From Cyanophora paradoxa CCMP329 (lineage: Eukaryota > Plantae > Glaucophyta), in the NCBI GenBank assembly GCA_004431415.1, contig QPMI01000127.1, positions 124,001 through 188,000 on the forward strand: a stretch of DNA of 64,000 bases, written 5' to 3'. Positions 53,257 through 63,926 of the stretch are shown here, piece after piece. The notes beneath the pieces are model-generated. The model did not search any database. It saw only the letters and a list, made by a program, of their open reading frames with translations, and was not told the origin of the DNA. Each line of letters opens with the position of its first letter. Position 1 is the stretch's first letter. The translations under genes were made by a program, and so were the position numbers.

Positions 53257-54533
53257 GGCTCACGCGCACGCCGCGCCCGGCTCTGCGGCGGCCGCGGCGC
53301 CCCGGCCGCGGCCGCGCCCGGCCCGACTGAGGCGCAGCGGGTGTGCACTTCGGCAGCTGCGCACTGCGGCGAGCTCGCGCTCCAAGCAGATCTAGATGCT
53401 GTCGGCGGCGGCAGCTGCTGCTGCAGTCCCCGAAATTGGAGCCTCAGCGGCCAGCTGCAGGCGGCTGAGGTTGCTGCAGAAGTTGACGTTGCGCTCCTGC
53501 GGCTGCCCAGCGGGGCCGGCCGCAGGCGCCGCTTCTTGTGCACGTTGCAGGCCTCGGCCTAGGCTGTGGGTAGATTGCGGCGGCACCTTCTTCGCAAGTG
53601 CTCGCCTCGCCGAGCCAATTGCAAACTAGCCAAGAAGCGCGGCGAGTCGGAGCTCCAGGGCGCCGCCGGCCGGACTCCCGCCAGAGCACTGAGCACCCGC
53701 GGCCGCCACGCGGGGGCCCGCCGGGGGTCCGGGACTCCGGCCGCTCGCAAGGACCGAGCTCCGAGGCTCAGCGGTCGCCAGTGTGAGGGAGCCCCTCCTA
53801 GGCCTGCTGGAGCAGCTGGCGGGCGGCCGCACGCGCAGATCGACGCGTACGCTCGCTCGAGCTCGAGCTCATGATCACTTCGAATTCCGAAGTATACGTA
53901 CGGTGCTCGCAGCTCGCGCCAGGTAGCCTGTACGGTTGTACCCCCTCCATTACCCCAGTTTGCATCTGCGAACCGACGAATTTACATAGCTGTACCCCTC
54001 GGGCCCCTTTTCTCGAACTAGCTCGAACACGGCTGCAGTCTCGTTGACTCGCGTTGACGTTGACGTCGACGTCAATTGCAAGAGATCCCCTCGAGCTCCG
54101 GAGTTTTACGTACCCAGATTCAGACCCAGATCCGATTGTCGTCCTAATACCCTGCGTTTTTCGAGGGTGGTGGTACCCCCCCTGGGAGCGACCGGGGGGC
54201 GGGTGGGGGCGAGGCGTGCGGGGGTACGGGTGCGGGGAGGCACGGGGAGGGGGGGTGATTGTGACGGGGACGCGCGGTATGCGTATATGTATACACCCTG
54301 TGAATGGACATATACCCGAATATATGCCTATTGAGTTGCGATTGGCGGGCTATTGAGCGGGGTGGGGGTGCCCTGGACGGGGCGTGAAAAACGGACGAAT
54401 GGGGTTGCGCGGCGTGGTGGGGGTACGGCGACGCGGGGAATCGGCCCGGGTGGCCCTGGCTGGGGTGATTCTGGCGGCAGTGCGGGGCTGGGGGGCCCGG
54501 GACGGGCGGGGCGGGCTCACTCTGGGCGGCGCG

Positions 54534-55080
54534 ATGGCGGACATCGAGGGCGCTGAGCGCGAGATTGCGACAACCTTCGAGGAGATGATGGAAGTCATCA
54601 AGCGCTCCGAGCAAGCTCAAGCGGAGGTGCGGGCCTGGAGACCGAGGTCAAGAAGAGGCGCTGCGCCTACGACGCAGCTCTGGAGCGCGGGGCGCGTGCA
54701 CGGAAGCTGGCGGCGCAACCGGAGGGCTGCTTTGCCTCTTTCATGCAGACCGGGCGCATCAAGGTTGAGCTGGATGCCACGATTACACGGGACGACCGCA
54801 CTTACAAGAAGTGGTATATCCGAAAGGAGGACCTGCTCGACCTGTACCGCGAGTGGTGCGAGAAGACGAACCGTGCTCCAATCACGGACGAGGAGCGCAT
54901 CCGTGGCATCCTTGGGGGCTGGGGTGCGAGTGGCGCTCGGAGTGGCCTGAAGGCGGCCCGATCGAGCTGCCGTATCCACGCACCCACTTCCGTAAACCCC
55001 GCTGCGCTACTTTCATCTTCGGCTGTGACGCGAACCCGACTTGGAACGACCCCGTCAACCCTCAGCCTGCTGATTTGTAA
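54534..55080 (+). CDS. Element ORF A, left-arm copy (frameshifted in this assembly): coiled coil plus D5-primase/helicase C-terminal-like winged helix
   Basis: Mirror of 62644-63192 with 1-bp indels. Confidence 0.6.
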
Positions 55081-55154
55081 GCACGCTGTGCACGTAGAGA
55101 GATTTGAGATATTCGAATAAAGTGCTCCTTCCTCTGCCAAGCTGGGGTGCGCTC

Positions 55155-55260
55155 GGGTTGGCGGGCTCGGGTTGGCGGCTGGGGTTGGCGGCTGGGGTTG
55201 GCGGCTCGGGTTGGCGACGGACCCGGAACCACCCTGGGTGCGGGGACGGGGGCGGTTCGG
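55155..55260 (+). repeat. GGGTTGGCGGCT-type tandem repeats plus a ~55-bp block repeated at 55913-55970 (mirrored at 61745-61885 and 62460-62570)
   Basis: Several imperfect 12-13-mers are followed by GGGTTGGCGACGGACCCGGAACCACCCTGGGTGCGGGG upstream of both ORF B and ORF C. Confidence 0.85.
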
Positions 55261-55266
55261 GGCGGC

Positions 55267-55311
55267 TTTATAGGGGCGGGCGAGCGGGGCGGGCTCACTC
55301 TGGGTGGCGCA
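55267..55311 (+). promoter_or_regulatory. Putative core promoter: TATA-like TTTATAG plus Inr-like TCACTC; the downstream part is shared with ORF A (54506-54533)
   Basis: GCGGGGCGGGCTCACTCTGGGYGGCGCRATGGCGGAC precedes both ORF A and ORF B. TTTATA lies ~28 bp upstream of TCACTC in ORF B. Confidence 0.55.
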
Positions 55312-61449: not shown

Positions 61450-61904
61450 GCCCACCCAGCGTCCACGCTTTCGACCAGCGACCCCACCGCAGTCCGCCGA
61501 CATGGTACCTGGGCCAGGTAGGAGTTTTGGTCCAGGACCCTTATGATCCTAAGATCCTAAGATCCTATGATCCTCGTGCCTTAAGTTTACTGGGCCCGAC
61601 CGGCGACCCCACCGCAGTCCGCCGACATGGTACCTGGGCCAGGTAGGAGTTTTGGTCCAGGACCCCTATGATCCTAAGATCCTAAGATCCTATGGTCCTC
61701 GCACCTTAAGTTTACTGGACCCTTCGGCCAGCGGCGCGCCCTTTTTAGGCCGCCCCCGAACCGCCCCCGCCCCCGCACCCAGGGGTGGTTCCGGGTCCGT
61801 CGCCAACCCGACAAGCTAACCCAGCTAACCCCACCAGCTAAACCGACCAGCCAACCCGAGCCCGCCAACCCGAGCCCACCCCAACCGGATTCTGATTGTA
61901 AATT

Positions 61905-62411
61905 CTACACATTGCGAGACAGCAGTGACTTTGCAAAGTCCAGGACGGCCGCCGCCTGCACTACAGCGTCCCCGTACGCTTGCAGCGCCCGCCCCCGCTC
62001 CTGCTGAAGGTCGTCCTGAGGTGGCACTGCGACAGGCGGACTTGGCGCCTGCTCCTTGGGCGCCTCCACCCGCTCCTTGACAGACGTTGGCTCCTTCTCC
62101 GGCACAACGTTGGCGTTTCTGTCGAACTTGACGCGCAGAACCTTGTTTCCCCATGAGCGCTGCCTGTCGATCTCCGCCTGGACGGCAGGGCCAAGCTCCT
62201 CGATCTTGTCCTTGCTCGCCAGCGCCACCGGGATCCGCCCCACGTGGCTTGGCTGGCCCAGTATTCGGAAGTAAGCCCAGTCGCCGGGCGGCAGGCTCGC
62301 GTACAGCCCCATCGGAAGCTTGTAGGCGTGGCGGTCGACGACGCGCGGTTTGCGCTTGCCCTCCTTGCTGCCACATGAGCGCTTGCGCTTCTTGACAGTC
62401 GCGTCCGCCAT
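61905..62411 (-). CDS. Element ORF B, right-arm copy
   Basis: Same protein as 55312-55818. Confidence 0.65.
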   Translation of the reverse strand: MADATVKKRKRSCGSKEGKRKPRVVDRHAYKLPMGLYASLPPGDWAYFRILGQPSHVGRIPVALASKDKIEELGPAVQAEIDRQRSWGNKVLRVKFDRNANVVPEKEPTSVKERVEAPKEQAPSPPVAVPPQDDLQQERGRALQAYGDAVVQAAAVLDFAKSLLSRNV

Positions 62412-62643
62412 TGCGCCACCCAGAGTGAGCCCGCCCCGCTCGCCCGCCCCTATAAAGCCGCCCCGAACCGCCCCCGTCCCCGCACCCAGGGGTGGTTCCG
62501 GGTCCGTCGCCAACCCGAGCCGCCAACCCCAGCCGCCAACCCCAGCCGCCAACCCGAGCCCGCCAACCCGAGCGCACCCCAGCTTGGCAGAGGAAGGAGC
62601 ACTTTATTCGAATATCTCAAATCTCTCTACGTGCACAGCGTGC

Positions 62644-63192
62644 TTACAAATCAGCAGGCTGAGGGTTGACGGGGTCGTTCCAAGTCGGGTTCGCGTCACA
62701 GCCGAAGATGAAAGTAGCGCAGCGGGGTTTACGGAAGTGGGTGCGTGGATACGGCAGCTCGATCGGGCCGCCTTCAGGCCACTCCGAGCGCCACTCGCAC
62801 CCCAGCCCCCCAAGGATGCCACGGATGCGCTCCTCGTCCGTGATTGGAGCACGGTTCGTCTTCTCGCACCACTCGCGGTACAGGTCGAGCAGGTCCTCCT
62901 TTCGGATATACCACTTCTTGTAAGTGCGGTCGTCCCGTGTAATCGTGGCATCCAGCTCAACCTTGATGCGCCCGGTCTGCATGAAAGAGGCAAAGCAGCC
63001 CTCCGGTTGCGCCGCCAGCTTCCGTGCACGCGCCCCGCGCTCCAGAGCTGCGTCGTAGGCGCAGCGCCTCTTCTTGACCTCGGTCTCCAGGGCCCGCACC
63101 TCCGCTTGAGCTTGCTCGGAGCGCTTGATGACTTCCATCATCTCCTCGAAGGTTGTCGCAATCTCGCGCTCAGCGCCCTCGATGTCCGCCAT
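62644..63192 (-). CDS. Element ORF A (182 aa): coiled coil plus winged helix resembling the D5/P4 primase-helicase C-terminal domain
   Basis: YIRKEDLLDLYREWCEKTNRAPITDEERIRGILGGLG...TFIFGC fits the LY..Y..WC...(N/G)......F...L...G...G pattern. Recognised from memory. Confidence 0.65.
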   Translation of the reverse strand: MADIEGAEREIATTFEEMMEVIKRSEQAQAEVRALETEVKKRRCAYDAALERGARARKLAAQPEGCFASFMQTGRIKVELDATITRDDRTYKKWYIRKEDLLDLYREWCEKTNRAPITDEERIRGILGGLGCEWRSEWPEGGPIELPYPRTHFRKPRCATFIFGCDANPTWNDPVNPQPADL

Positions 63193-63926
63193 CGCGCCGC
63201 CCAGAGTGAGCCCGCCCCGCCCGTCCCGGGCCCCCCAGCCCCGCACTGCCGCCAGAATCACCCCAGCCAGGGCCACCCGGGCCGATTCCCCGCGTCGCCG
63301 TACCCCCACCACGCCGCGCAACCCCATTCGTCCGTTTTTCACGCCCCGTCCAGGGCACCCCCACCCCGCTCAATAGCCCGCCAATCGCAACTCAATAGGC
63401 ATATATTCGGGTATATGTCCATTCACAGGGTGTATACATATACGCATACCGCGCGTCCCCGTCACAATCACCCCCCCTCCCCGTGCCTCCCCGCACCCGT
63501 ACCCCCGCACGCCTCGCCCCCACCCGCCCCCCGGTCGCTCCCAGGGGGGGTACCACCACCCTCGAAAAACGCAGGGTATTAGGACGACAACCTTAGTCAC
63601 GACGCTCGCTCACGGTAAGAACCACGGTTTCTACGGTCGTGGGACCAGTGGGCTAAGGTTGTCAACTCGGAACCCTGGGGATTTCGTGGGTCGGCGGTAC
63701 CCCCCCGGGACCGGCGTGCGGGGGGGTCGAGCCAGGCGTGGCCCGCCACGGGTACGCCGACCCGCCACCGCCACGCGTGACTCCCGTGACTCCCGTGGCA
63801 CCCGTGACGCGGGCGGTGGGGTGCAGCCGCACGGGCCTGGTGTGAGCTTGCTAGGGCGCTCGCCCCTCGGGGTCCGGGCCGGGGGCCGGCGTGGGAAAGA
63901 TTTCGGTGCGATTGTTGAGAGAGGGC

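Follow-up and report, generated by a model that had tools for sequence, protein, structure and literature searches.

The window analysed here, a stretch of 64,000 nucleotides from Cyanophora paradoxa, contains a palindrome of 9,455 bp (9.45 kb) at positions 54136-63590. Self-BLAST returned a single inverted self-match of this kind, extending across the full span at 99.6% identity, and confirmed the 9.45-kb palindrome with a 1-nt apex described in an earlier note on this DNA. The two arms, each of about 4.72 kb (left arm, 54136..58855, forward strand; right arm, 58857..63590, reverse strand), meet at CCACTTC-T-GAAGTGG, in which the T at position 58856 is the single unpaired centre base. Across the remaining 54 kb of the window the longest perfect palindrome arm is 13 bp, which excludes a chance origin of the structure.

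Alignment of one arm against the other revealed 20 single-base indels and no substitutions, all of the indels lying in G/C runs. Seventeen of these are one-base assembly deletions in the left arm, where ORFs A, E1 and E2 are frameshifted, and the other three are deletions in the right arm, within ORF C. Short-read contigs resolve the indels to one sequence, with the right-arm letters restored at the left-arm deletions. Because the arms are identical, either the event was recent or the arms have been homogenised. The GC content is 67%, compared with 67-77% in host DNA, and both GC and the CpG ratio are close to host values.

Gene content of the arms

Each arm carries seven intronless ORFs (182, 168, 249, 132, 90, 75 and 69 aa), with 62% of the arm coding and 38% non-coding. 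ORFs A, B and C are read inward from the outer end and E1-E3 and D inward from the centre, giving a convergent arrangement in which the centre cuts no ORF. The first ATGs lie 398 bp (outer end to ORF A) and 403 bp (centre side) from the arm ends. Two common upstream motifs occur two and three times in the arm and are absent from the 54-kb host part, in agreement with the earlier description of seven intronless ORFs with private upstream motifs and supporting the view of the arm as a foreign-looking gene module. Codon GC is host-like, with GC3 values of 0.78-0.99.

ORF A (182 aa; 62644..63192, reverse strand; mirror copy at about 54534-55080, forward strand) has an N-terminal coiled coil, and its C-terminal part is possibly a winged-helix DNA-binding domain, as suggested by structure modelling (pLDDT 61) and by a Foldseek search in which no hit reached E<=0.001 and several weak rows were winged-helix domains. 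ORF B (168 aa; 61905..62411, reverse strand; mirror at 55312-55818, forward strand) has a basic N-terminus, and ORF C (249 aa; 56271..57020, forward strand; mirror at about 60703-61449, reverse strand) a central coiled coil; neither has an assigned family. Upstream of ORF C, self-BLAST identified two tandem 125-bp copies (55999..56249, forward strand), a 41-bp piece of which recurs inverted at 57028-57068, placing ORF C between inverted repeats. ORF D (132 aa; 60099..60497, forward strand; mirror at 57226-57624, reverse strand) likewise has no family, and its structure model reached pLDDT 42; a suspected likeness to DUF6891 found no Pfam support and was dropped. E1, E2 and E3 (59259-59531, 59567-59794 and 59839-60048, within 59259..60048 on the forward strand) encode paralogous, glycine-rich small proteins, each with two hydrophobic stretches, and each gene is preceded by a T6-containing motif.

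A 402-bp non-coding spacer (58857..59258, forward strand) separates the centre from E1. It contains a weak stem at about 58897-58985, beside the centre (z -2.0 and -2.5; equalled by 11 and 4 of 200 shuffles), and a 15-bp motif shared with the outer element end (E 0.002). Scanning the arm in 120-nt windows revealed no fold better than z -2.3, and an Rfam search gave no match.

Homology searches

Searches of the arm proteins against Pfam, PHROGs, NCBIfam, PDB, BFVD and viral contigs returned no significant match. No capsid match rose above noise, although the whole element was read; its longest ORF (249 aa) is the coiled-coil protein. Among the seven ORFs there was no match to a packaging ATPase, polymerase, primase-helicase, integrase or tyrosine recombinase, and no protelomerase or resolvase gene; the arm contains no Nucleocytoviricota marker genes, which in giant-virus endogenous elements (GEVEs) extend over tens to hundreds of kb. 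Viral-contig scans with A, A1, A2, B, C, D and a 21-mer of the end as queries, one metagenome scan and a phage tblastn search all gave no match. A wide VIA search matched the coiled coil alone.

ORF A has a single relative, likewise a C. paradoxa protein: a 35% paralogue (g1498; P0004) located on the same contig outside the window, to the right by gene number. A search of 1.84 billion sequences returned P0002, P0004 and a plant match, P0005; the plant match was repeat-driven and was discarded, and P0002 was rejected as a paralogue because it is the left-arm gene model. Homologue searches near the length of ORF A retrieved only gene models of the same locus (P0001, P0002), and longer lengths yielded nothing. 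For Pox_D5 (PF03288), ORF A gave no Pfam match; an Atlas value of 0.88 to a cluster with 11% Pox_D5 is a lead only, and hhalign against 69 P4-alpha C-termini gave E 0.65. The homologue search for E1 found its own gene model alone, and Atlas offered no usable match for this protein.

Short-read depth and junctions

Short-read contigs from three public DNA runs (X1, X15 and X6, two of them dated 2024) were analysed, with depth scaled to the median of seven single-copy contigs in X1 and X15 and with n=4 reference contigs in X6. Relative to single copy, arm depth was 1.8-2.3x in X1 and 2.0-2.4x in X15; in X6 the centre-side 1.8 kb of the arm stood at 0.7x and the rest at 3x (n=4 reference contigs). 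An arm contig, 57039-58855, ends on the base before the centre in all three runs, and the position of the centre in the short reads would follow from these stops at 58855.

The left junction is represented by a contig at 53235-54163, without a single difference, in X1 and X15 and by one at 53335-54163 in X6, at single-copy depth in two runs; the right junction is represented by a contig at 63564-63687, at single-copy depth, in X1 and X15. These contigs extend just 27-28 nt into the arm, below the 31-letter bridging rule. X6 has no contig over 63601-63640 at the right junction, and, as its assembly comprises only 71 Mb, this gap was not counted as evidence. Since both junctions are single-copy and the arm is at 2x, arm depth is accounted for by two integrated arms and leaves no room for abundant free linear closed-end copies, rare free forms being invisible in contigs. 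Taken together, arms at about 2x, single-copy junctions in two runs and contig stops before the centre in three indicate that the palindrome is very likely a real chromosomal structure and not a read chimera or a hairpin replicon existing free. The coverage comparison proposed in the earlier note, with arms at about twice single copy in two of three runs, does not support a fold-back read chimera, and the suggestion that the arm was mis-joined to host DNA gives way to outer junctions present on both sides in independent short-read contigs.

The outer end and its insertion sites

The outermost 373 bp of each arm (54136..54508, forward strand, mirroring 63218..63590, reverse strand) form a non-coding element end common to other insertions. 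A 373-nt contig at about four times single-copy depth ends exactly at 63590, and the depth of the outer end (4.1x in X1, 4.7x in X15) corresponds to 4-5 copies. This end is sharp and occurs next to at least four different flanks. Four or more ends in the genome have the 373 bp in common, stop at 63590-63593 (behind 63591 and 63593 in all three runs, behind 63590 in X6) and lead inward to a common promoter-like motif followed by a gene. In a third copy the first 340 nt of ORF A are shared before the sequences diverge, and a fourth runs into a different gene behind the same motif. A solo MITE was considered for the outer 373 bp and rejected, every inner side seen leading to the same motif and a gene. 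Beyond its first 740 bp the arm is present in only two copies, and the genome therefore holds no near-identical full-length parent. The right arm, previously described as running on into more unique sequence, stops at the sharp limit that also bounds the left arm, and it is this outer end, rather than the apex once read as the terminus of a larger hairpin-ended element running right, that other insertions share.

On the host side of the left junction, 20 bp beyond the element end, stands GTACCC (54110..54115, forward strand), likely the target motif; other flanks have it at the same spacing. When each flank was compared over 30 nt, GGGTAC was found 21-22 bp out in four of the five flanks seen, at nt 21-26 in three and nt 22-27 in the fourth; any hexamer common to three of five random host 30-mers arose 63 times in 200,000. 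In the window itself the left flank has the motif in register and the right flank does not. No target duplication of >=3 bp was found within 3 bp of the window junctions, nor was a 5-6-bp target site duplication of the Maverick/Polinton type present there. These sequence comparisons make it likely that insertion of the element takes place 20 bases away from a short target motif.

The right flank (63591..64000, forward strand) consists of 68 bp of single-copy DNA, a repeat at 63659-63819 with 6-7 copies by short-read contig depth, and a single-copy contig, in which an ORF from 63927 is F-box-like by eye.

Discussion

We consider it somewhat better than an even chance that the palindrome, integrated in the chromosome, derives from a virus-like mobile element not described before, as a copy that folded back and depends on a helper. 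Helper dependence would follow from the lack of a recognisable polymerase, capsid, ATPase or integrase gene in the element, and, as no arm protein has a significant database match, "virus-like" refers solely to gene layout. In four of five flanks the family end stands 20 bp from GTACCC with no duplication of the target, a placement that would point either to a tethered integrase or to a site-directed recombinase. The fold-back may have begun with a strand that broke or stalled within the spacer preceding E1 while the element was being excised or replicated; with a micro-hairpin as primer, this strand would have been copied back to the element end, 4.7 kb away. One further round of copying would yield the two-armed palindrome, and the enzymes of a helper copy then likely brought it into the chromosome. 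Both palindrome ends would then be the motif-side end, which would explain a motif in register at the left flank only. Several observations run against this reading. No parent element was seen. The centre lies in a 402-bp spacer that mirrors the 398 bp separating ORF A from the outer end, and the genes are convergent, an arrangement suggestive of a designed unit rather than of breakage at a random point. The junction contigs reach only a short way into the arm, X6 depth is uneven along the arm, and GC and CpG are close to those of the host.

In a weaker form of the earlier note's idea, each 4.72-kb arm would be a complete, evolved satellite genome, open at one end and closed covalently by a hairpin at the other, and the palindrome would be its replicative dimer, integrated via the two open ends. 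The convergence of genes from both arm ends, first ATGs at 398 and 403 bp, the 15-bp motif in both end regions, the uncut ORFs at the centre and the weak stem beside it are all in keeping with such a genome, which we nevertheless regard as rather unlikely: centre-side sequence is present in about two copies against 4-5 for the outer end, other family ends lead into different genes, genes for replication or for a resolvase are absent from the arm, shuffled sequences equal the stem in 11 and 4 of 200 cases, and with 38% of the arm non-coding a spacer break would not be rare. It is similarly improbable that the locus represents an undescribed class of small algal satellites. Their linear genome of 4.7 kb would have a hairpin at one end and a recombining end at the other, and its palindromic dimer would integrate site-specifically, setting its end 20 bp away from a host GTACCC motif with no duplication of the target. 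A normal element might instead have been inserted and later duplicated at its end in place, the rest being deleted, by chromosomal fold-back from a break near a micro-inverted repeat or by ODIRA-like fork reversal. Such events give inverted junctions at short repeats in yeast (PMC4689423) and would suit a right flank without the motif in register, yet the right arm carries no host flank along and shares its terminal base with all other family ends, a point at which repair would have no reason to stop; we judge this decidedly unlikely.

Absent viral markers, host-like codon GC and an ORF A whose sole relative is another C. paradoxa protein would fit a DNA transposon of the foldback type that had very long inverted arms and had captured host or processed genes, with nothing viral about it; the lack of a target duplication and of a transposase, together with seven intact intronless ORFs whose private motifs are missing from 54 kb of host DNA, makes it a slim prospect. 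An assembly artefact from a long read passing a missed adapter is barely plausible: the assembly was made from PacBio RSII reads with Canu (PMC6704402), the centre is 1 nt and the arms differ by homopolymer indels alone, as from two passes of one molecule, but the 2x depth, two distinct junctions and contig stop exactly at 58855 in the short-read runs contradict it. Equally remote is the reading of the earlier note, a hairpin terminus belonging to a larger replicon that is either free or mis-joined and continues right. The ORF A paralogue on the same contig, by which related DNA may be near, and the X6 gap at the right junction lean towards it; single-copy junctions in X1 and X15, 2x arms, a single-copy right flank and an identical end on both sides lean away, and a free hairpin-ended genome is likely not what the palindrome represents.

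Hairpin-ended replicons such as N15, Borrelia and the poxviruses form head-to-head junctions with dyad symmetry, as seen in the palindrome; here, in contrast, a resolvase gene is missing from the arm, copies are not in excess and it is the outer end that the family shares. Palindrome and hairpin derivatives of yeast pGKL1 (F1/F2) and Streptomyces pSLA2 consist of two inverted copies of one linear-element end and interconvert with the hairpin half; unlike the palindrome described here, they are free and terminal-protein-capped rather than integrated. The accessible text of PMC5449611 makes no mention of palindromic plasmids. Symmetric AAV snapback genomes resemble the palindrome in that one genome end and part of the genes are folded back, the opened form having the same end twice, but they are transient packaged by-products of an ssDNA virus (PMC8235507), while the palindrome is chromosomally fixed and has no known family.

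Endogenous Polinton-like viruses (PLVs) of the tyrosine-recombinase type share a non-coding end of several hundred bp common to insertions (PMC12220804, PMC10120064), compact intronless genes and the absence of target duplication, YR-type PLVs being mostly without TSDs (PMC12220804). Terminal repeats of hundreds of bp, by which Polinton-like viruses are recognised, are present here as the 373-bp end on both sides, common to other insertions. The differences are size (14-40 kb in PMC12220804, against 9.45 kb), a whole body made of one palindrome, and the lack of a capsid, ATPase, polymerase, helicase or integrase gene; a fixed 20-bp spacing to a flank motif is not described in the accessible parts of PMC12220804 and PMC10120064. 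The link to PLVs is one of architecture, without a sequence match, and viral identity is putative. The C. paradoxa genome carries many PLV-type capsid genes (PMC10120064), and the species is also reported to contain GEVEs (PMC12344493).

A 9.45-kb palindrome with a one-base centre persists in the eukaryotic nucleus of an axenically culturable alga, whereas such structures rearrange quickly in yeast (PMC4689423). The locus points to an undescribed mobile family in a glaucophyte whose end keeps a constant spacing of 20 bp to a short host motif, and the enzyme behind this placement would be a motif-directed DNA integrase or recombinase. The palindrome itself would preserve, in fixed form, a fold-back product that resembles a defective genome and derives from an endogenous virus-like element, which bears on how such elements replicate their ends.

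A near-perfect palindrome supported by short reads

Self-comparison of the window returned one inverted match, 54136-63590, whose only unpaired base is the T at 58856, confirming the palindrome and one-nucleotide apex described in an earlier note; the perfect palindrome arm next in length within the window is 13 bp. The 4.72-kb arms (54136-58855 and 58857-63590) differ by 20 one-base indels, all in G or C runs, and by no substitutions, which bounds arm divergence at 6e-4 (0 substitutions/4,720 bp). Because short-read contigs bring 19 of the 20 differences to a single version (eight itemised singly and the remainder by counting gaps; the twentieth, 55947, did not appear), the two arms probably have one and the same sequence. 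The palindrome is stable and near-perfect. A mirrored base at 54249 and 63477 is unlike the short-read contigs in both arms in all three DNA runs.

Left-arm words were present at 87-88% in 20 of the 24 runs listed, these 20 being DNA by guess and sharing one species label; contigs from three of them (public short-read runs X1, X6 and X15) and from one RNA-guess run were compared with the window. The earlier note expected a fold-back chimera to show arm coverage at half the host level. Relative to the median of seven single-copy contigs, the four arm contigs instead have depths of 1.8-2.3x (X1) and 2.0-2.4x (X15), contig depth being a rough measure only. This depth is accounted for by two integrated arms, and a chimeric read is an unlikely source of the palindrome. 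PMC6704402 gives the assembly as PacBio RSII/Canu and the genome as probably haploid.

The 54135/54136 host junction, at which the earlier note sought spanning sequence, is crossed in X1 and X15 by a 929-nt contig without differences and in X6 by an 829-nt contig; the right junction lies inside a 124-nt contig of single-copy depth (X1, X15). These contigs reach 28 nt (left) and 27 nt (right) into the arm, below the 31-letter rule for bridging, as would follow if a contig meeting a repeat could not go much deeper in k=31 graphs. The centre-side contig stops at 58855, a point at which branching into T or A is expected, in all three DNA runs, and none of the contig rows listed spans the centre. 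X6 is an exception in depth that counts against a real palindrome: its centre-side 1.8 kb lies at 0.7x and the remainder at ~3x (only four reference contigs), the contig at 57039-58855 having a depth of 14 versus 62-66 for other arm parts, in this run only. The step coincides with the 41-bp repeat after ORF C and possibly comes from library bias or else from a rearranged subpopulation.

A small family shares the outer end

The outer 373 bp of each extremity (54136-54508 and 63218-63590) form one contig at 4.1x in X1, stopping exactly at 63590. Beyond the window's own two flanks, at least two more occur in all three runs and at least one further in X6. Inward from this end, a third copy has 340 nt of ORF A in common with the arm before its sequence departs (three of three runs), and in a fourth the same promoter-like motif precedes a different gene (two of three). 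Given these extra flanks and differing inner sides, a small family terminates at this outer end, and only the window copy has the centre. The earlier note had placed the element's terminus at the centre and had the right arm continue into unique sequence; neither reading is supported, as 63590 is the shared end with different DNA beyond it: first a 68-bp single-copy stretch, then a repeat at 6-7x and then a 2,450-nt contig, also single-copy. No target duplication is present at the element junctions.

At 54134-54135 the left junction contig ends 2 nt sooner than it would with a unique flank; a further family end, with two flank bases in common with this one, is suggested. A separate 6-7-copy repeat occupies 63659-63819, just outside the right end. 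The last 36 nt of the 2,450-nt contig, beyond 64000, match 63850, hinting at a tandem unit right of the element.

GGGTAC occupies positions 21-26, outward from the end, in the window's left flank and both three-run flanks, and 22-27 in the X6 flank (three-run and X6 positions counted by hand); the window's right flank has GGTA only, at 24-27. The flanks are otherwise dissimilar by eye. GGGTAC occurs at 0.12% of host positions, and in 63 of 200,000 draws any hexamer fell in register in three of five random host 30-mers, the observed sample being five flanks. Because the motif is common in the host (it occurs three times within the 880 bp of intergenic DNA on the left), end placement by direct recognition and by tethering to a host factor are both possible.

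Gene content of the arm and its surroundings

Seven intronless ORFs fill 62% of each arm, with A, B and C running from the outer end inward and E1-E3 and D from the centre inward. One upstream motif is common to A and B and another to E1-E3, and both are absent from the window's 54 kb of host DNA. The intronless ORFs and their shared motifs are as the earlier note described them. E1-E3 are paralogues (25-35% identity). No ORF had a significant family, structure or viral-contig match. The single true relative of ORF A is g1498, a 35% paralogue outside the window on Cyanophora paradoxa contig tig00000492, to which the gene models that match ORF A and E1 also belong; given this location, a related element may lie right of the window. 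The C-terminal half of ORF A may, to judge by eye, resemble D5-type winged helices. What the label "virus-like" stands on is the dense packing of the genes, their lack of introns, the motifs peculiar to the arm and the common terminus.

At 55999-57068, 41-bp inverted repeats (7-bp tandem unit) bracket ORF C, and to its left lies a tandem duplication of 125 bp; the element may have acquired this region as an inserted cassette. ORF B lies between ~83% identical direct repeats (55143-55281 and 55840-55987), which suggests cassette-like promoter modules.

The element lies 880 bp upstream of the start of a spliced minus-strand gene (47900-53256), hybrid histidine kinase-like by eye. Elsewhere, a unit of ~4 kb is repeated in tandem three to four times at 22286-35354, the copies having diverged to 77-92% identity, and an inverted paralogous gene pair, F-box/leucine-rich-repeat-like by eye, lies 27 kb apart at 17364-19172 and 45199-46772. 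A low-GC island (51-63%) at 11000-17000 contains a spliced gene that we take, from motifs by eye, to resemble a PiT/PHO4 phosphate transporter.

Origin and affinities of the element

Most likely, one strand of a parent element formed a fold-back 4.72 kb from an end, and copying then ran back as far as that end. Replication would have yielded a molecule with this end on both sides, and a helper enzyme would have inserted it into the chromosome; we infer both the fold-back step and the helper. Such an origin would give identical arms, both stopping at the family end, and a motif in just one of the two flanks. As the main rival, the arm itself would be an evolved unit with a hairpin end, with which its converging genes, its first ATGs at 398 bp from one end and 403 bp from the other and a 15-bp motif common to both end regions are consistent. 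A fold-back that took place within the chromosome is less likely, since it left no duplicated host flank.

Among known systems, symmetric AAV snapback genomes share the element's build (PMC8235507). The short terminal palindromes described for Halocafeteria elements (bioRxiv 10.64898/2026.07.28.741278) are a different structure. Recombinase-type polinton-like viruses (PLVs) mostly lack target site duplications (PMC12220804), yeast palindromes with 2-4-base loops are unstable (PMC4689423), giant-virus endogenous elements with methylated viral genes are reported in C. paradoxa (PMC12344493), and rows of the capsid-gene tables give this species the value 366, the column heading lying outside those rows (PMC10120064). 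Because its own gene content does not qualify the element as a PLV, we class it by its mode of working, as resembling a snap-back defective derivative of unproven family. We found no published description of the locus, most subscription papers lying outside our coverage. The palindrome is very likely real, and ordinary in its probable origin by fold-back; the family behind its outer end is undescribed, and its target spacing is an unexpected feature.
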